Assembly: GCA_022646745.1 (NCBI GenBank)
Contig: CP060262.1
Location: forward strand, 930,001 to 962,000
Reading direction: 5' to 3'
Length of the DNA stretch: 32,000 bases
Origin: Planctomycetales bacterium
Lineage (GTDB): Bacteria > 4484-113 > JAFGCY01
Shown piece after piece: positions 8,782 to 32,000 of the stretch. Under the pieces are notes generated by a model, which saw nothing but the letters and a program-made list of their open reading frames with translations, made no database searches and had not been told where the DNA came from. Both the position numbers and the translations under genes were made by a program. How positions within the stretch are numbered: position 1 is the stretch's first letter; each line of letters starts with the position of its first letter.

Positions 8782-10263
8782 ATGAGCATGATCAGGCGCC
8801 GCCTGCAGAACATCGTTCTGGCGGGCGCATTGATGTCAGCAGTTATACCGGCCGCCGCCAGCGCACAGGGAAGTGACGCGCAGTCCCCGCGGGCGGCGGA
8901 CTCTTCCGGATTCTCCAATGCAGCAGGCAGTGTCGTCGCCTCGCGTGACGGCTTCGAGCTGCGCAGCCTCGATGACAGCTTCCACTACGGCGGGCAGGCG
9001 GACTACACCCTGCGTGTGCTGCCGGATGGCGACTTCATCAAGGTGCAGGTGCAGGTGTTCGCCTCCGACATGCGGGCCTGCCTCGTGGAACTTGGCTACG
9101 ACGATTCCTACTGGCAACTGGTGGATGGCAAGCGCGGCGACTGGCCGGGCAATGAGCAGCCGCTGCAGCTGAGCGTGCCGGAGATGGCCGGCAGCCTGCA
9201 CCACGGTGCGGTGCTGCCCCGTCCGCAGAAGGCACAGGGCGTGACCGGCACCTTCGAGCTGCTGGAGGCCCGCTTCCGTCCGGTCGGCCAGTACAGCGCC
9301 GTCAAGGGCGTGTCCAGCCCGGACGTTGCCAGCAGTGGTTTGTCAGCAGCGATCGGTGACTACAACGCCGATGGGCAGGTCAACCTGGCCGACATGCTGC
9401 GCGTGAGCGAGTACTGGGGCCAGCGTGCCTCAGACTTCCCGCCGGGCACCCTGTCCAGCGTGGATGGCGATGGCAACGGCGTGATCGATGGCAACGACAT
9501 CCAGGTGATCGCGAACCACCTGCTGATGGTCAGTGGCAACACCCCCGAGGTGAGCATCGCCGCCAGCACCGTCAGCAACGAAACGCTTACGCGCAACCAC
9601 TGGCCGACGAGCCCGGTGGACCTCGACTGGCTGACGAACTACTACCTGACGCTGCCGGCGGTTGACAGCACCTATTCCGTCTATGACGATGCCGAGCAGC
9701 AGCAGTACGCCGAGAAGGTGTTCGAATACACCAACGAGGCCCGCACCGACAAGAAGCACACCCCGCTCAAGCGCGTCCCCTGGCTGGACGCGGTGGCCCA
9801 GGCGCAGGCGAAGCACATGGCGCTCAACGGCTACTTCGAGCATGACAGCCCGCAGGGCATGACGATCTTCGACCGCATCGAGGCCCCGGACGGGCCGGAG
9901 TGGTGGCATGCCGGTGAGAACATCGCCGCCGGCTACCGCACACCGGAGCAGGCCCACAAGTCCTGGATGGACTCCGGCGGCCACCGCAAGAACATCCGCA
10001 ATGAGAACTACCGTTACATGGGCGTCGGGGCCTACTACCTGCCGGGCAGCGAGTACGGCTGGTACTGGGTGCAGGTGTTCGCCACCTACCGCGAGGACCC
10101 GATGACGCATGACTGGATCGACCCCGGCCAGGGCGACCCGGTGATCACCCGTGAGCAGATCCTGCAGATGCAGGGGCAGAACCCGAAGCAGCCGGCCAGC
10201 CGCGCCACCTCCGCTGACAACACGCGGCAGGTGCCGAAGCAGCCGGTGCGCCGCCGTGGTTGA
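8782..10263 (+). CDS. secreted protein with dockerin-like repeats and C-terminal CAP/SCP (YkwD-like) domain
   Basis: Sec signal (..AAASA-QG). Dockerin-type repeats (DYNADGQVNLADMLRV; VDGDGNGVIDGNDIQVIANHL). The C-terminal segment (FEYTNEAR......L.....L...AQ.HA..M...GYFEHDSP.G......I....W...GENIAAGY.TPE.A...WM.S.GHR.NI.N..Y...GVG) is typical of SCP/CAP-domain proteins. Confidence 0.85.
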   Translation: MSMIRRRLQNIVLAGALMSAVIPAAASAQGSDAQSPRAADSSGFSNAAGSVVASRDGFELRSLDDSFHYGGQADYTLRVLPDGDFIKVQVQVFASDMRACLVELGYDDSYWQLVDGKRGDWPGNEQPLQLSVPEMAGSLHHGAVLPRPQKAQGVTGTFELLEARFRPVGQYSAVKGVSSPDVASSGLSAAIGDYNADGQVNLADMLRVSEYWGQRASDFPPGTLSSVDGDGNGVIDGNDIQVIANHLLMVSGNTPEVSIAASTVSNETLTRNHWPTSPVDLDWLTNYYLTLPAVDSTYSVYDDAEQQQYAEKVFEYTNEARTDKKHTPLKRVPWLDAVAQAQAKHMALNGYFEHDSPQGMTIFDRIEAPDGPEWWHAGENIAAGYRTPEQAHKSWMDSGGHRKNIRNENYRYMGVGAYYLPGSEYGWYWVQVFATYREDPMTHDWIDPGQGDPVITREQILQMQGQNPKQPASRATSADNTRQVPKQPVRRRG

Positions 10264-18302: not shown

Positions 18303-18803
18303 CTACTGATTACTGATCCACTCGTACAGTTCGCGTCGCGTGCGGAATACATGCTGTTCCACCTGCGGGTTGGCAGCGAGGATCTCCAGCGTGCGCCGGC
18401 GGCTGCGCTTTGGATAGTCCCAGACCCACTTCAGGAAGGGCAGGTCGAAGCGCTCGGGGCAGCCCTCGCCGCAGTCAGCGCGCTCCCGTCCGAGGTGAAT
18501 CCGTACACGCCTGAGTACCTGCCACATGCAGAACAGGCGCGGGAAGTCCAGCCAGACAACCATGTCGGCGCGTGCAATGCGCATTGGCAGGCTGCCGGTG
18601 TAGTTGCCATCGACAAGCCAGCGATCAGCCGCCACGATGGCGGCCTCCTGCCGCTCCCACTGCTCATCCGTAGGCTGTTGCCAGCCCGGACGCCAGAATT
18701 CGCGGTCAAGGTGAATGAGCGGCAGATTGAGCCTGCGCGCCAGCTCCACGGAAGCCGTGGACTTGCCGGAGCCGCAGTTGCCGATCACGAGTACGCGCTG
18801 CAT
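18303..18803 (-). CDS. P-loop NTPase, FlaR/topology-modulation/adenylate-kinase-like
   Basis: MQRVLVIGNCGSGKST (Walker A), ..IHLD..FW.PGW, WLVDGNY and VVWLD.P are typical of this family. The track N-terminal extension (to 18866) translates the purine-rich repeat and is rejected. Confidence 0.85.
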   Translation of the reverse strand: MQRVLVIGNCGSGKSTASVELARRLNLPLIHLDREFWRPGWQQPTDEQWERQEAAIVAADRWLVDGNYTGSLPMRIARADMVVWLDFPRLFCMWQVLRRVRIHLGRERADCGEGCPERFDLPFLKWVWDYPKRSRRRTLEILAANPQVEQHVFRTRRELYEWISNQ

Positions 18804-18820
18804 GGACATTGAGTTATTCC

Positions 18821-18995
18821 CAGGATCAGAATGAGAAGCAGAATGAGAATGAGCAGAAGAAGTCATCAGTCTGGAGTCTCAATTACCGGCAGGCTGCCTG
18901 CAAAATACTGCTGCTTCTGCTTCTCATCCTGCTTCTGTTTCTGTTTCTCATTCTGTTTCTGCTTCTGCTCTCAGCTCTCTGCTTTCTGCTCTCTG
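18821..18995. repeat. purine-rich AGCAGAAGCAGAATGAGAA-type low-complexity blocks forming a long imperfect palindrome
   Basis: The left arm (CAGAATGAGAAGCAGAATGAGAATGAGCAGAAG) is complementary in type to the right arm (CTTCTGCTTCTCATCCTGCTTCTGTTTCTGTTTCTCATTCTGTTTCTGCTTCTGC...). Related blocks lie at 7034-7090 and 18192-18269. Confidence 0.75.
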
Positions 18996-20670: not shown

Positions 20671-20804
20671 CCGCCAGCGGTGGCGGGGGGACTACATCGG
20701 GATATCCTGAGGTCGCGGGTTCAAATCCCGCCGCTTCCCAGGAAGCGTAGCTCAGTGGACCAGAGCACAGGACACTGCATCACCCCCCGGCGATTCCCTG
20801 GCGA
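20671..20804 (+). ncRNA. yrlA: YrlA-like Y RNA with circularly permuted tRNA-like domain
   Basis: Closing stems CGCCAG/CUGGCG and GGGGGG/CCCCCC. CUACAUCGG motif. Element order is: UCCUG, T-arm GCGGG-UUCAAAU-CCCGC (20715-20731), acceptor-like stem CGCUUCC/GGAAGCG closed by a short loop, D-arm GCUC-AGUGGACCA-GAGC (20750-20766), then CAGGA, which pairs back to UCCUG. Confidence 0.7.
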
Positions 20805-20903: not shown

Positions 20904-20966
20904 GGGCGGTGGGCAGCCGGAATACATCGGACAGTCACTTCGACATCCGGCTGCGTTATCCCCCCA
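20904..20966 (+). ncRNA. Y-RNA-like module 5 in the rsr 5' leader
   Basis: The 5' strand GGGCGGUGGGCAGCCGGAAUACAUCG aligns with modules 2 and 4. Perfect 9-bp stem GCAGCCGGA/UCCGGCUGC. A C6 tract ends 4 nt before the GGGAGA SD of rsr. Confidence 0.5.
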
Positions 20967-20980
20967 AACGGGAGACAGTG

Positions 20981-22495
20981 ATGGTTCTGTTCAGCAGGGG
21001 CAGGAAGGCCCCGAAGAAGCCGGACACCCATAACCTGGCGGGTGGCCGTGCGTACAGCCTCAGTCCGCAGCGCGAGCTGCTGGACATCGCGCTCACAAGC
21101 AAGCTGCAACGCCAGTTCTACCGCGAGCCGGATGAGACGATGCGGCGTGTGCGCAGGCTCGTGAAGGAAGCCGGGCCGGAGTTCGCCGCGCGCTGTGCAC
21201 TGTACACCCGCCACAGGATGGGCCTGCGCAGCATCAGCCACCTGCTGGCCGCCGAGGTCAGCCGCCGGGCATCCGGTGAGCAGTGGCTGTCGGACTTCTA
21301 CCGCCTGGTTGCCAGGCGGCCGGACGACATGCGAGAGATCATCGCCTGCATCATGGGTGGCCCGGAATTCGGTGAAGGTGTTGCCAGGAAGAGCGGCAAG
21401 GGACGCAAGCGCAACGGCCATGCATTGCCGAATTCGCTGAAGCGCGGATTCGCAAGGCGCTTCGAGCAGTTCGACGAGTACCAGCTCGGTGCTTACCGCG
21501 GTGAGGGTCAGGGCGTGTCGCTGGTTGACGTGATGCGGCTCGTGCACCCGCGTGAGACGGAGGCGATCCGCAAGCTCAAGGACGGCACGCTGCGCAGCCA
21601 GAAGCAGGACGCGAAACTGACGAGGAGCGGGCAGCTGGCTGACAACGCCGAGTCCGCCGCGCAGCTGAAGCGCGAGGTCTGGCATGCCGAGATCGAGCGG
21701 ATGGGCTACAACGCGCTCGTGATGAACGCGCGCGGAATCCTTGCCAGCGCCCCGGAGCTGAAGGGCCGTCTGTGCGAGCGGATCGAGGATGCTGAAGCCG
21801 TGCGGCGCAGCCTGATCCAGCCGCTGCAGATCTACCGCGCCTACCGCGAACTGGAGGACCGCCAGCTGAGGCTGAGCCTGAGCAGGGCGATCGATCTGGC
21901 ATGCGCCAATGTGCCGCGCTTCGAGGGCCGCACCCTGGTGGCATTCGACGAAAGCGGCAGCATGACCGCATGGACGCATGGTGACATGAAGATCCCGGCT
22001 ATCGAGTATGCATCGCTGTTCGCGGCGATCCTCGCCAGGTCGCAGGATGCGGACGTGATCAGCTTTGACACGACTGCGCGCTACCGGAAGTATGATCTTG
22101 GCAACACCACGCTGAGCATCGCTGAAGACTGGCATGTGGCGCGTGGCGGAGGCACTGACATGGGCACGATCTTCAGCAGGATGCGCGGGAAGTATGACCG
22201 CGTGATCGTGCTGACAGACATGCAGAGCTGGTATGGTGTCGATCCGGAGAAGGCGGCAGCGCTGTACGAGAAGAAGCAGCGCAGGCCGCTCAAGATCTAC
22301 AGCTTTGACCTGACCGGCTACGGCACGGCCCTGTTCCGCCCGGGCAGCATCCAGATGCTGTCCGGTGTCAGCTTCGGTGTGTTTGACACCATCGCCAGGC
22401 TGGACCAGGGCGGGGATGTGCTGATGGATGAAGTGAACGCGGTGCGCTTCACCGATGAATGGGTGCAGAGCGTGCGCGACAGCCACGGAAAGTGA
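20981..22495 (+). CDS. rsr: Rsr, Ro60-related protein (TROVE domain plus vWA domain)
   Basis: N-terminus NLAGG.AY.L.....L.......L...FY......T......L. .......FAARCALY.R..MGLRS..H.L.A is TROVE-like. The C-terminal vWA has MIDAS DESGSM and later GGGTDM ... VLTDMQSW. The start at 20981 is preferred (GGGAGA SD) because the track start at 20909 lies inside module 5. Confidence 0.9.
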   Translation: MVLFSRGRKAPKKPDTHNLAGGRAYSLSPQRELLDIALTSKLQRQFYREPDETMRRVRRLVKEAGPEFAARCALYTRHRMGLRSISHLLAAEVSRRASGEQWLSDFYRLVARRPDDMREIIACIMGGPEFGEGVARKSGKGRKRNGHALPNSLKRGFARRFEQFDEYQLGAYRGEGQGVSLVDVMRLVHPRETEAIRKLKDGTLRSQKQDAKLTRSGQLADNAESAAQLKREVWHAEIERMGYNALVMNARGILASAPELKGRLCERIEDAEAVRRSLIQPLQIYRAYRELEDRQLRLSLSRAIDLACANVPRFEGRTLVAFDESGSMTAWTHGDMKIPAIEYASLFAAILARSQDADVISFDTTARYRKYDLGNTTLSIAEDWHVARGGGTDMGTIFSRMRGKYDRVIVLTDMQSWYGVDPEKAAALYEKKQRRPLKIYSFDLTGYGTALFRPGSIQMLSGVSFGVFDTIARLDQGGDVLMDEVNAVRFTDEWVQSVRDSHGK

Positions 22496-29758: not shown

Positions 29759-30643
29759 ATGCATGTTGACGACGCCCTGCGCCACTGGTCCGCCTGGCTT
29801 TTGACCGCCCGCGGGCGCAGCCGCAGCACGGTGGGCAGCTACCTGCGGGACATGCAGCAGTTCGTGCATCTCAGTGGACTGGCGGAACTGTCCGGGCTGG
29901 ACCGGGCAAGGGTGGTGGACTGGCTCAATGCACTGGCCGAGCGGGAGATGGCACCGCGCAGCCGGGCCCGCAAGCTCAGTGCGCTGAAAAGCTTTGTCGG
30001 CTGGGCGATGGAATACGGCCACCTGGCGCAGGACCCGGTGCCGGCTGAACTGGCAACGCAGCGCGGGCTGGACCTGCCGCATGCGCTGACCCAGGGTGAA
30101 GTGCAGGCAATCCTCGATGCCACGCGCGGGCTGGATCCACTTTCCGTCCGTGACTCCGCGATGCTTGAGACCCTCTACGCCTCTGGGATGCGGGTCAGCG
30201 AACTGACAACGCTGCGCCTGGCCGACCTGCACCTGCCGGAGGGTTTCGCGATCGTGACCGGCAAGGGCAGCAAGCAGCGCCTGGTACCGCTTGGGCATTA
30301 CGCGATCGAGGGCCTGAAGGCCTATATCGGCCCCGTGCGGGAGTCGATCTGTCCGACAGCGCCCCTGCATCCGGAGGTGTTCCTCACCCGGCGCGGGGCG
30401 ATCAGCCGCTCGATGGTGTTCCGGCTGGTACAGAAGTACGCCCTGCTGGCCGGGGTGAAGAGCCATGTCTCGCCGCATACCTTCCGCCATTCCTGTGCCA
30501 GCCATATGCTGGAGGGTGGCGCGGACCTGCGCCTGGTGCAGGAACTGCTGGGACATTCCAGCCTGACCACCACGCAGATCTACACGCATATCGACAAGCG
30601 GCGGCTGCGGGAGGTCTACGACCGCGCCCATCCCCACGCGTGA
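29759..30643 (+). CDS. xerD: tyrosine site-specific recombinase, XerC/XerD family
   Basis: RD.AMLETLYASGMRVSEL..L...D, GKGSKQRLVPLG, HTFRHS.ASHMLEGGADLR.VQELLGH.SL.TTQIYTHI give the complete R-K-H-R-H-Y catalytic pattern. XerD versus XerC cannot be decided from sequence reading alone. Confidence 0.85.
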   Translation: MHVDDALRHWSAWLLTARGRSRSTVGSYLRDMQQFVHLSGLAELSGLDRARVVDWLNALAEREMAPRSRARKLSALKSFVGWAMEYGHLAQDPVPAELATQRGLDLPHALTQGEVQAILDATRGLDPLSVRDSAMLETLYASGMRVSELTTLRLADLHLPEGFAIVTGKGSKQRLVPLGHYAIEGLKAYIGPVRESICPTAPLHPEVFLTRRGAISRSMVFRLVQKYALLAGVKSHVSPHTFRHSCASHMLEGGADLRLVQELLGHSSLTTTQIYTHIDKRRLREVYDRAHPHA

Positions 30644-30960
30644 AACGATTTCATGCACCCGGCCGGCCTGGGTTGTCAACACGCAGCAGCCTGACAGGTT
30701 GATAAGTCCGCTATCCACTGTTGACAATCTGTGCGCCGGATTGCTTTTGGGAATTTTCCGGGACAGCCCACGCAGCTGCCGGATGTCCGCCAGGCCTGGT
30801 ATCCCCGTATGCCCTGTCCCGGACTGGCCCCAGGGAGATGGCAACCAGCCACATGCCCGTCAGTTGTGCCGATCTATCAACCAGTCAGGTTGACAACACA
30901 GTCCCGTGGTTGATAAGTGAAGGAAATCCAGGGAATTTCAGAAATTACCCGGATTTCTTA

Positions 30961-30989
30961 TTGACAACGGCTTGCTGGGGGAGTATCAT
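30961..30989 (+). promoter_or_regulatory. near-consensus sigma70 promoter (TTGACA - 17 nt - TATCAT)
   Basis: -35 at 30961-30966 and -10 at 30984-30989. Flanked by inverted TTGACAA / TTGTCAA boxes. No ORF with coding character follows. Confidence 0.65.
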
Positions 30990-30995
30990 CACATT

Positions 30996-31416
30996 GTCAA
31001 GGCAGTGATGCTGATGGCGGAAACGCCGGAGTCACCGCCCTCCAGCGAGGCCCCCGGGTCGCGCTGGGGCAAGACAGGCATGCGGTTGGCAACAACCTCG
31101 TGCATCCCGCGGTGGCCTGTCCACCGTCGGGGAAGAGGCGGCTTCTGGGTGGCAACACCCAACTGGCCAGCCTGGGACCGCGCCGCAAGGCAGGTCCATG
31201 GCATGCCGGGACGCCTGGTGGCAACACCGGGCGGGTGCAGTGGCAACACCGCACTCCCGAGATGGTTAGGCTTCGGTTTAACCGGAATGCCGCAGGCCGG
31301 CGGCAACGGTGGCAACACCGATGCTGACGACCAAACCGACAGCGGGTTCGCCCGCTGTCACCCCCGCCCCGTGCGGGGGCCGAAGCCCGGAGCAATCCGG
31401 GCTTCACTATTTTCTT
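30996..31416 (+). ncRNA. candidate ~420-nt highly structured ncRNA rich in GCAA-capped hairpins (family not recognised)
   Basis: Hairpins read directly from the sequence:
- GGCG-GAAA-CGCC, 31016-27
- GGUUG-GCAA-CAACC, 31084-97
- CGGUGG-CCUGU-CCACCG, 31110-26
- GGGUG-GCAA-CACCC, 31147-60
- GGACCGCGCC-GCAA-GGCAGGUCC, 31175-97
- CGCCUGGUG-GCAA-CACCGGGCG, 31212-33
- GUGCAGUG-GCAA-CACCGCAC, 31235-54
- GGUUAGGC-UUCG-GUUUAACC, 31264-83
- CGGUG-GCAA-CACCG, 31307-20
- GACAGCGGG-UUCG-CCCGCUGUC, 31338-59
- CCCCCGC/GCGGGGG, 31361-79
- terminator hairpin
The ends are inferred from the promoter and terminator, not measured. Confidence 0.55.
31382..31416 (+). terminator. intrinsic terminator of the candidate ncRNA
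   Basis: 10-bp stem GAAGCCCGGA/UCCGGGCUUC with a GCAA loop, followed by ACUAUUUUCUU. Confidence 0.7.
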
Positions 31417-31424
31417 GCTGATTC

Positions 31425-31800
31425 GCCCGAGGGCTCATCGGTCTGGCGCTGCGGCTGCGCATTCGCGCATCCGGGTCGCGCGGAAGTTGCGGGGTTCGGC
31501 GGTCTGGCGCTGCAATCCGGCTAAGCCGGATTGGGTCGCGCTGAAGTTACTGGAGGCCAGATGTCAATCTGGCAATATCTTCAAGCGAAAACTCTCCTGT
31601 TTGTGCTATCAGCGATTGGCTAAGCCATGAGCTGTATTGCAGACCGTCGAGTGCTCGCACGAGACGGAAAGAGAATACGGCCTGGGCCTGCGCTGGCGCT
31701 ATCACTGCCAGCGGGTCGGCCGGAAGAAACATCGCTGCCCCTGAAGGTGCATCGCGCAATCAGTCAGGCCGAAGGCGTGATCGGCCTGAAGTTGCGTACT
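31425..31800. repeat. mosaic intergenic repeat block (copy B)
   Basis: GGCTCATCGGTCTGGCGCTGCGGCTGCGCATTCGCGCATCCGGGTCG (near-identical to 17007-17053). REP-like unit at 31552-31574. TGCAGACCGTCGAGTGCTCGCACGAGACGG (31638-31667). ..GCCTGCGCTGGCGC..CTGCCAGCGG..CTGAAGGTGC. Confidence 0.8.
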
Positions 31801-31823
31801 TCTGCAATGACAAGTAGAGACTT

Positions 31824-31998
31824 GTAGCGGTGGCGCCTTGCGCTAATTGAAAGGGCATCTCCCGAAGTTTCCTTGCCGAGAACTACATTTCCCTTGGATT
31901 GGAGTTGAACGGGACAAGAACCTGGCCACATTGATTTGAGCCATCAGCTTCGCAACCCGTAACTGTCACTTCCAGTTGGCGCCAGGCGCCACCGCTAC
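31824..31998. repeat. 175-bp lower-GC element bounded by 15-bp perfect inverted repeats (MITE-like or structured RNA; truncated context)
   Basis: GTAGCGGTGGCGCCT (31824-31838) is the exact reverse complement of AGGCGCCACCGCTAC (31984-31998). The interior is visibly more AT-rich than its surroundings. The window ends 2 nt later. Confidence 0.6.
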
Positions 31999-32000
31999 CC

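Follow-up and report, generated by a model that had tools for sequence, protein, structure and literature searches.

The question raised by the 32,000-nucleotide (nt) stretch of DNA analysed here (the window; positions 930,001 to 962,000 of contig CP060262.1, forward strand, from the Planctomycetales bacterium assembly GCA_022646745.1) is what lies near its right-hand end, where about 420 nt with no convincing gene separate a gene for a XerD-like recombinase from a run of repeats. An earlier description made from the letters alone, hereafter the sequence-only reading, had proposed a stand-alone non-coding RNA (ncRNA) built from one reiterated hairpin. The promoter, the terminator, the predicted folding and the covariation among seven sequences all point to such an RNA, and we hold it to be nearly certain that positions 30996-31416 of the plus strand are a genuine structured ncRNA gene. 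The three features that define it are:

30961-30989, plus strand: sigma-70-type promoter, with TTGACA (30961-30966), a 17-nt spacer and TATCAT (30984-30989).
30996-31416, plus strand: structured RNA of about 421 nt, supported by folding and covariation.
31382-31416, plus strand: intrinsic terminator, with a 10-bp stem (31382-31405), a GCAA loop (31392-31395) and a U-rich tail.

A promoter and terminator scan of the window recovered both signals that had been described by eye, namely the near-consensus promoter TTGACA-17-TATCAT, which matches 11 of the 12 consensus positions, and the canonical terminator, whose GC-rich stem is followed by the T-run ACTATTTTCT. The 5' end of the RNA was placed from the promoter geometry and the point where conservation starts. 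The -35 element TTGACA is unchanged in 6 homologues, the -10 element reads either TATCAT or TAGAAT, with T1, A2 and T6 kept, and the terminator is close to invariant, its loop being GUAA in one homologue (L203). In all four loci with downstream sequence (L014, L203, L012 and L009) the next gene lies on the opposite strand, and the element is therefore not a leader. With a promoter of its own, an intrinsic terminator and no co-oriented gene downstream, the locus would have the general make-up of a stand-alone small RNA (sRNA) gene.

Relatives were gathered through the adjacent XerD-like recombinase; exact-protein matches returned identical DNA only. Recombinase homologues at 82-98% identity led to the loci L014 (96% nt identity), L009 (75%), L012 (79%) and a partial L008. 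A metagenome pattern scan with the kink-turn (k-turn) block GCTGATGGNNGAAACGCCGGAG, described below, returned 25 loci, of which two were genuine (L071 and L079), the other 23 being discarded as coding sequences for LMxETPE. Finally, spurious open reading frames (ORFs) of the region were translated on both strands and searched as proteins, which recovered L203 (a metagenome-assembled genome at NCBI, GCA_041395205.1, on a 1.88-Mb contig), L204 and L205, none more distant. The resulting alignment, A4, holds seven distinct sequences in four sub-clades, with the homologues (L014, L079, which equals L205, L203, L204, L009, and L012, which equals L071) at 75-96% identity; the partial L008 is counted outside the seven.

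The folding of the element stands well apart from chance. Its minimum free energy is -244.8 kcal/mol, compared with -195.2 +/- 6.4 in dinucleotide shuffles (z = -7.7 for the plus strand and -4.4 for the minus strand). RNAalifold gave 142 pairs, 26 of them with compensatory double changes, and after removal of a long-range pairing of the A-tail the consensus structure consists of 139 base pairs in 17 helices. In this structure roughly two positions in three are paired, and the statement that almost every nucleotide lies in a hairpin went somewhat too far. Standard pairing is kept in 96.8% of the alignment cells, whereas it falls to 32-45% when the partners are slid by 1-3 columns, and changes on both sides are seen in 26 pairs as against 3-6 after sliding; neither value was reached in any of 500 shuffles. 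The cells with G·U pairs (82) far outnumber those with A·C (9), and four G·U pairs are invariant; this asymmetry identifies the plus strand as the RNA strand.

The same alignment speaks against a protein. An ORF of 149 aa does exist at 30972-31421, but variable columns are spread evenly over the three codon positions (0.31, 0.35 and 0.35), indels of 1 nt and 22 nt between homologues break every reading frame, and the longest open frame shifts from frame to frame among the homologues. Searched against 5.8 billion proteins and 1.84 billion cluster representatives, the translated ORFs met the same loci alone (3, 1 and 4 matches), and no Pfam domain was found in the translations. We thus agree with the sequence-only reading that this ORF has no coding character, and a protein-coding gene was rejected on these grounds: no conserved frame, no third-position bias and no independent protein homologues. 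The homologues differ by stem-preserving rather than codon-like substitution, with 96.8% of pairing kept over the 139 pairs, 26 of them compensated, and flat codon positions, which was the outcome that the reading of this DNA as an RNA gene had predicted.

Comparison with known families was uniformly negative. Rfam 15 (4227 models, covering RNase P, transfer-messenger RNA (tmRNA), 6S, signal recognition particle (SRP) RNA, CsrB/Rsm, OLE, GOLLD, ROOL, HEARO, raiA and riboswitches) has no family whose gathering threshold was reached anywhere in the window, and the same holds for 5 homologous loci; the best matches of a sensitive scan of 30600-32000 scored 13-18 bits where 39-178 would be required (E >= 0.1). 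ARAGORN saw neither a tRNA nor a tmRNA in the 32 kb, no similar plasmid or phage record came up with BLASTN, and a literature search for the hairpin sequence turned up only unrelated small interfering RNA and microRNA strings. The sequence-only reading had seen no signatures of RNase P RNA or tmRNA and no B12 box, and the Rfam and ARAGORN results agree that the element is neither of these two RNAs nor a riboswitch; the covariance-model comparison that had been suggested produced no significant match. 6S RNA, SRP RNA, RNase P RNA, integron attC sites and a dif site were all considered and set aside. Given the fold, the covariation and the non-coding pattern, together with the nulls from Rfam 15, ARAGORN and the phage and plasmid collections, this is an uncatalogued, lineage-restricted family of structured RNA.

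The predicted anatomy of the RNA, from its 5' end up to the terminator, is as follows:

31001-31039, plus strand: 5' hairpin, with an outer stem (31001-31009/31031-31039) and an inner stem carrying a GAAA loop (31020-31023).
31040-31069, plus strand: hairpin H3, with strong covariation (double changes in 5 of 11 pairs).
31070-31077, plus strand: single-stranded linker CAAGACAG, within the invariant block GGGCAAGAC.
31078-31103, plus strand: core hairpin copy 1, with UGGCAACA at 31087-31094 and the stem GGUUG/CAACC.
31106-31131, plus strand: hairpin H5, with the base CCCG...CGGG and a variable apical stem and loop.
31132-31173, plus strand: GAAG linker, outer stem and core hairpin copy 2, with UGGCAACA at 31150-31157.
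31175-31197, plus strand: generic GNRA hairpin, with a GCAA loop at 31185-31188 (GAAA in L012).
31199-31292, plus strand: multi-branch domain, with closing stems 31199-31204/31287-31292 and 31207-31210/31256-31259.
31212-31233, plus strand: core hairpin copy 3, its core at 31219, inside the multi-branch domain.
31235-31254, plus strand: core hairpin copy 4, its core at 31241, inside the multi-branch domain.
31264-31283, plus strand: UUCG hairpin, inside the multi-branch domain.
31295-31332, plus strand: long irregular hairpin with core copy 5 at its tip (UGGCAACA at 31310-31317), containing GGCGGCAACGG.
31338-31359, plus strand: UUCG-capped hairpin, with double changes in 6 of 9 pairs.
31361-31379, plus strand: C/G-rich hairpin, a consensus helix.

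GNRA and UUCG tetraloops account for ten of the 13 terminal loops (seven GCAA, one GAAA and two UUCG), and the other three are C/U-rich. The single GAAA loop (31020-31023), both UUCG loops (31272-31275 and 31347-31350) and the two further GCAA-capped stems outside the core hairpins (loops at 31185-31188 and, in the terminator, 31392-31395) were all located as the sequence-only reading had counted them. The first 22 nt, GUCAAGGCAGUGAUGCUGAUGG, are identical in all aligned sequences, and so are the GAAG linker and the outer stem (31136-31143/31165-31173) that encloses core hairpin 2. In the 5' hairpin, all loop nucleotides are unchanged in the seven sequences, including an asymmetric, k-turn-like internal loop, GCUGA/GA (31010-31014/31029-31030). 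A k-turn consists of a canonical helix followed by a 3-nt bulge and by G·A pairs of the sheared type, two or three in number (PMC9723947), and at the level of a sequence pattern this is matched by 5'-GUGAU-GCU-GA-UGGC-3' (31005-31018) opposite 5'-GCCG-GA-GUCAC-3' (31025-31035), with the bulge and the G·A positions unchanged in all seven sequences. However, at the C-helix position beside the bulge every sequence has a U·G wobble (alignment columns 14-36), with A-U as the next pair, where a C-G pair is described as essential for the k-turn (PMC9723947), and for that reason the k-turn assignment is tentative. A search over the seven close sequences for covariation-supported long-range helices or pseudoknots gave nothing convincing, and so far as these sequences can show, the RNA appears to be a string of locally folded domains.

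What recurs along this string is a single hairpin tip. The sequence GTGGCAACAC is found exactly at 31149, 31218, 31240 and 31309, with one unrelated copy elsewhere in the 32 kb (at 9533), against a chance expectation of 0.10 per window, and five copies were reached in none of 100 shuffles. The sequence-only reading had listed five GUG-GCAA-CAC hairpins starting at 31084, 31147, 31212, 31235 and 31307. These starts are correct but the shared core has to be redrawn, as hairpin 1 is GGUUG-GCAA-CAACC and so reads GUUG...CAAC instead of GUG...CAC; what all five have in common is U-G-[GCAA]-C-A/G, that is UGGCAAC(A/G), at 31087, 31150, 31219, 31241 and 31310 (a spacing of 63, 69, 22 and 69 nt). All 35 orthologous instances (five hairpins in seven sequences) read UGGCAAC, as do the two extra copies, which makes 37 of 37, and UGGCAACA is present in every orthologous hairpin except hairpin 1 of two sequences, where UGGCAACG turns the U-A pair into a U·G wobble. 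In the same RNA the generic tetraloops drift, from GCAA to GAAA in L012, from GCAA to GUAA in the terminator of L203 and from UUCG to UUUA in L009. Covariation is seen in the pairs directly flanking the core: G-C is replaced by A-U in hairpins 2 and 4 (in hairpin 2 at the third pair), hairpin 3 shows several changes, third and outer stem pairs exchange C-G for G-C as well as G-C for A-U, and the stem of hairpin 1, GGUUG/CAACC, has become GGCUG/CGGCU in the clade of L009 and L012.

How such copies may arise is seen in L203 and L204, where a 22-nt insertion, GAUGCAGUGGCAACACGGCAUC (L203 10000-10021; columns 219-240 of A4), adds a sixth core hairpin and thereby indicates that core hairpins multiply by duplication. 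Both loci now carry three tandem 22-nt hairpin units with outer stems that differ from one another, each being self-complementary. After duplication, the flanks have diverged with compensation while the 8-nt core was held, and this is the main argument that the loop and its two closing pairs are what is read; the reiterated hairpin appears to be under selection. As an aside, the UGGCAACA core is also found in an isolated minus-strand hairpin at 18683, GGGCUG-GCAA-CAGCCU, whose stem has 6 bp; this hairpin is in or near an ORF at 18303-18866 and may be a chance occurrence.

The function that we would propose, with confidence somewhat short of even, is that of a multivalent platform for a hairpin-specific partner. 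A trans-acting RNA of about 421 nt would be made from a strong and probably regulated sigma-70 promoter and would end at the intrinsic terminator; it would act as a scaffold or a decoy, on whose core hairpins several copies of one hairpin-specific partner could dock. The partner would most likely be a protein that reads the GCAA loop and the two closing pairs; the role of the conserved 5' module and the junctions would be to fix the architecture or to offer a second site for binding. The absence of a covarying long-range helix fits such a beads-on-a-string platform. The sponge or scaffold idea of the sequence-only reading is a plausible hypothesis. A more elaborate version, which we consider doubtful, is that the RNA forms the core of a new ribonucleoprotein (RNP) or RNA particle, in which the hairpins recruit a dedicated protein or dock neighbouring RNAs and the k-turn-like 5' module nucleates assembly. 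That the partner should be the XerD-like recombinase encoded upstream, with the RNA scaffolding or guiding recombination, is highly improbable.

Several observations weigh against the platform. The transcript of 30996-31416 is as yet predicted, and so is a partner: no candidate was found in the conserved neighbourhood, where none of the genes (for the T2SSE ATPase, two proteins without a Pfam hit and the XerD-like recombinase) has an obvious role in RNA binding. Nine of the ten core pairs never vary, compared with 57% of all pairs, which by our own simple binomial estimate corresponds to p ~0.03; with 57-66% of all positions invariant and all homologues belonging to one narrow lineage, the invariance of the core between orthologues is only weakly informative. 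The likeness between the hairpin copies could in part come from duplication rather than selection, and parts outside the motif (the 22 nt at the 5' end, a multi-branch domain, and junctions, GGGGAAGAGGCGGCUU among them) are conserved to the same degree. GNRA loops are, moreover, a standard device for RNA-RNA tertiary contacts.

This last point leads to a rival explanation that we judge unlikely but worth stating in full, namely that the RNA is architectural and self-assembling, its GCAA loops making RNA-RNA contacts that yield a compact particle or a homo-oligomer, which might have a catalytic or cage-like function and would require no hairpin-binding protein. The prevalence of GNRA and UUCG loops (10 of 13), the high conservation of the junctions and the 5' module, and a length of 421 nt within the size range of the large ornate RNAs would all suit this explanation. 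On the other hand, GNRA docking works without an identical second closing pair in each copy, and here that pair, U-A, is the same in every copy; nor was the 11-nt receptor UAUGG...CCUAAG seen when the sequence was checked by eye. A copy number that changes from 5 to 6 is hard to reconcile with a fixed compact fold, and no covariation-supported long-range helix or pseudoknot was detected, although tertiary contacts may escape notice in sequences of such low diversity. RNA-only homo-oligomers do have a precedent in ROOL, GOLLD and OLE (PMC12286853). We find it quite improbable, too, that this is an ordinary lineage-specific regulatory sRNA, such as one that acts by base pairing, in which the hairpins are merely stable modules spread by local duplication, with no shared ligand. 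L203 and L204, with their tandem duplication of 22 nt, do show that hairpins multiply, the phylogenetic range is narrow, and the conserved single-stranded CAAGACAG and GAAG could be seeds. But in a set of modules without a ligand one would not expect outer stems to diverge with compensation around an unchanged 8-nt core while the other tetraloop hairpins drift, and 421 nt with 139 conserved pairs far exceed the typical base-pairing sRNA.

Two further explanations fare worse. Identical hairpins at roughly regular spacing (63/69/22/69 nt) could mark a precursor from which a nuclease, recognising the hairpin, would release several small hairpin RNAs by cutting in or beside each copy, in the manner of CRISPR repeats or ToxI, and one hairpin bears a weak, non-significant likeness to a CRISPR repeat model (E = 5.2). 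This is very improbable, as Tandem Repeats Finder sees no array but only a 9-nt, 2-copy match, the segments between the hairpins are mutually unrelated, each being conserved and structured, and cas, toxin and nuclease genes are not adjacent in any locus; a type III toxin-antitoxin RNA and a CRISPR array were rejected for the same lack of constant-period tandem repeats, the hairpin spacing being irregular in detail, and of an adjacent toxin or cas gene. The other explanation is that the element acts as DNA (recombinase sites, single-strand hairpins or a repeat of the repetitive extragenic palindromic (REP) type) or as a 149-aa coding gene. It could draw on the XerD-like recombinase that adjoins the element in all loci, the REP-like repeats that follow and the ORFs that gene callers placed across the region, and yet it is largely refuted and has in our estimate next to no probability. 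The excess of 82 G·U over 9 A·C cells is a strand asymmetry unexpected for DNA hairpins, a conserved promoter and terminator frame the element exactly, there is one copy per locus, and nhmmer found no RNA at the more distant XerD orthologues L010 and L011; as to coding, the frame-breaking indels, the absence of codon periodicity, and ORF translations with neither a Pfam domain nor relatives beyond the same loci all argue against it.

Returning to the RNA gene and its proposed role as a platform, its promoter lies within a conserved control region:

30672-31000, strand unassigned: upstream control region, with palindromic TTGWCAA boxes and GGTTGATAAGT boxes.

Five palindromic TTGWCAA boxes fall within these 330 nt (at 30673, 30721, 30890, 30961 and 30994), the one at 30961 coinciding with the -35 element and the one at 30994 overlapping +1; the window as a whole has 13 such sites where 1.8 are expected, and 5 of the 13 lie within 30672-31000. 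There are in addition GGTTGATAAGT boxes at 30697 and 30908 and an inverted TATCAACC at 30875. The 355-nt spacer between xerD and the RNA thus carries two box islands that are kept across clades, and these conserved islands suggest that transcription of the RNA is regulated, with the TTGWCAA and GGTTGATAAGT boxes as candidate operator or second-promoter sites. The box sequence TTGACAACAC also shares 8 of 10 positions with the hairpin sequence GTGGCAACAC of the RNA, for which we offer no explanation.

The order of genes is the same in every locus: a T2SSE ATPase and a 134-aa protein on the minus strand, then, on the plus strand, a 204-220-aa protein, the XerD-like recombinase and the RNA. The two small neighbouring proteins have no Pfam hit, and the larger is apparently membrane-bound. 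The RNA is single-copy in every locus, and its placement after a XerC/D-type gene and before repeats, as described in the sequence-only reading, is reproduced in that a XerD-like recombinase lies upstream in all loci and REP-like repeats come after. Toxin, cas, nuclease and reverse-transcriptase genes do not adjoin the RNA in the loci examined. In three XerD orthologues at 64-68% identity (L010, L011 and L207) the gap from xerD to the next gene is only about 50-120 nt, and nhmmer found no RNA in L010 or L011, L207 not having been searched. A fourth orthologue, P0018 (JGI 3300056388, gene table only, 64% identity), likewise has its next gene about 110 nt downstream. In P0018, dnaA is found about 2.4 kb downstream of the xerD stop, which places xerD near the replication origin region in that genome; in the RNA-bearing loci no dnaA occurs within 10 kb.

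Attempts to reach further relatives returned little. In viral contigs, the two invariant blocks GGCAGTGATGCTGATGG and GGGGAAGAGGCGGCTT hit 13 and 28 loci respectively, every one of which blastn showed to be due to chance, and a scan of a genome collection with the pattern TGGCAACA-gap-TGGCAACA-gap-TGGCAACA gave more than 120 unrelated loci among the matches listed, with no homologue by nhmmer. Ten of those listed loci (L087, L094, L128, L131, L142, L144, L153, L163, L195 and L202) show clustered TGGCAAC(A/G) with stems of at least 4 bp. In several of them the sites are evenly spaced, at intervals of about 14 nt (L202), about 37 nt (L195), alternately 26 and 8 nt (L131) or, in others, multiples of 18 or 27 nt. 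The scan of JGI metagenomes and the two protein libraries of billions of entries turned up the few loci described here and no others, all of them from uncultured bacteria; either the family is rare or its distant members are beyond the reach of exact-match probes.

Directly after the terminator stand two units of about 60 nt (31431-31553), each consisting of GGTCTGGCGCTGC, a variable hairpin and GGGTCGCGC(G/T)GAAGTT, and further mosaic repeats follow (31557-31576; L009 7680-7740; L203 10245-10980), for example CCAGATGTCAATCTGGCAAT, which occurs three times in L203. These repeats keep their position in other clades, and short-read contigs end there; on both counts they are probably a multi-copy element resembling REP sequences or miniature inverted-repeat transposable elements (MITEs). 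Elsewhere in the window, two features would make up a bacterial module of the Ro60/Rsr-Y RNA kind, here in a lineage that is uncultured:

20684-20792, plus strand: YrlA-like RNA (RF02553), 42.9 bits, E = 3.6e-8, under the gathering score of 69.
20909-22495, plus strand: Ro60 ORF, with TROVE and Ro60-vWA domains.

The YrlA-like match has a tRNA-like T-arm, GCGGGUUCAAAUCCCGC, and lies about 120 nt upstream of the TROVE ORF. An RNA-chaperone system of the Y RNA (YrlA)/Ro60 kind is thus encoded nearby, but its Y RNA is apart from 30996-31416 and the Ro60 gene is 8.5 kb away; a link between the RNA described here and the Ro60 gene was rejected, as the latter has its Y RNA elsewhere and is absent from the neighbourhood of L009.

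Bacterial RNAs longer than 400 nt with dense, covariation-supported structure are rare, and in the past they have proved to be ribozymes or to form the core of RNP machines. The present RNA is a clean example of one 8-nt hairpin core held constant in 5-6 copies while its surroundings covary. If a reader of this core exists, hairpin and reader would make up a new RNA-protein recognition module and possibly an orthogonal tethering tool comparable to MS2 or boxB; if instead the RNP or particle reading is true, the RNA would represent a new class of large bacterial scaffold RNA beside OLE, ROOL and GOLLD. The practical weight of the finding is limited, as the family is confined to a handful of uncultured genomes, the neighbourhood indicates no pathway and the transcript is so far predicted.

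Among known systems, the sponges CsrB, RsmY and RsmZ are alike in being free-standing sRNA genes, with a promoter and a terminator to themselves, and in carrying many copies of a short hairpin-tip motif whose number differs between relatives (here 5 or 6). They differ in the motif, which is GGA in the loop in their case and a U-G-[GCAA]-C-A hairpin here, and no Rfam model of theirs matches. None of the 13 terminal loops contains GGA, and a CsrB/RsmZ-type sponge by motif (GGA or ANGGA in loops) was rejected on this basis; no csrA gene is present in the conserved neighbourhood, nor was any CsrA-like partner identified. The spacers of CsrB-like sponges evolve freely, whereas here the parts between the motifs are as conserved and as structured as the motifs themselves, and a defined scaffold or RNP therefore fits better than a simple sponge of this kind. 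The mode of recognition that we propose, a short stem and a GNRA or GNRA-like loop read sequence-specifically together with the closing pairs, would resemble boxB-N of lambda and P22 and the MS2 and PP7 coat operators. Those are single hairpins in mRNAs or phage genomes, in contrast to the 5-6 copies in a dedicated RNA seen here.

With OLE, which forms an RNP with OapA, OapB and OapC and needs its k-turn for the binding of OapC (YbxF) (PMC9723947), the RNA shares its nature as a large, highly structured and lineage-restricted bacterial RNA of unknown chemistry, and its internal loop, which fits the k-turn at the level of a pattern, could recruit an L7Ae/YbxF-type protein. It differs from OLE in showing no sequence or Rfam similarity, in having no dedicated partner gene adjoining it, in the U·G pair of the C helix in place of the essential C-G, and in its reiterated hairpin, which OLE does not have. 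ROOL and GOLLD, which like OLE form RNA-only homo-oligomers (PMC12286853), are similarly large bacterial ncRNAs with dense covariation-supported structure and no known function; the present RNA is smaller (421 nt) and made of local hairpins, with no long-range pairing detected and no Rfam match. In its logic, then, the RNA is closest to the protein-titrating sRNAs on the one side and to the large RNP and ornate RNAs (OLE, ROOL and GOLLD) on the other, and it belongs to neither.

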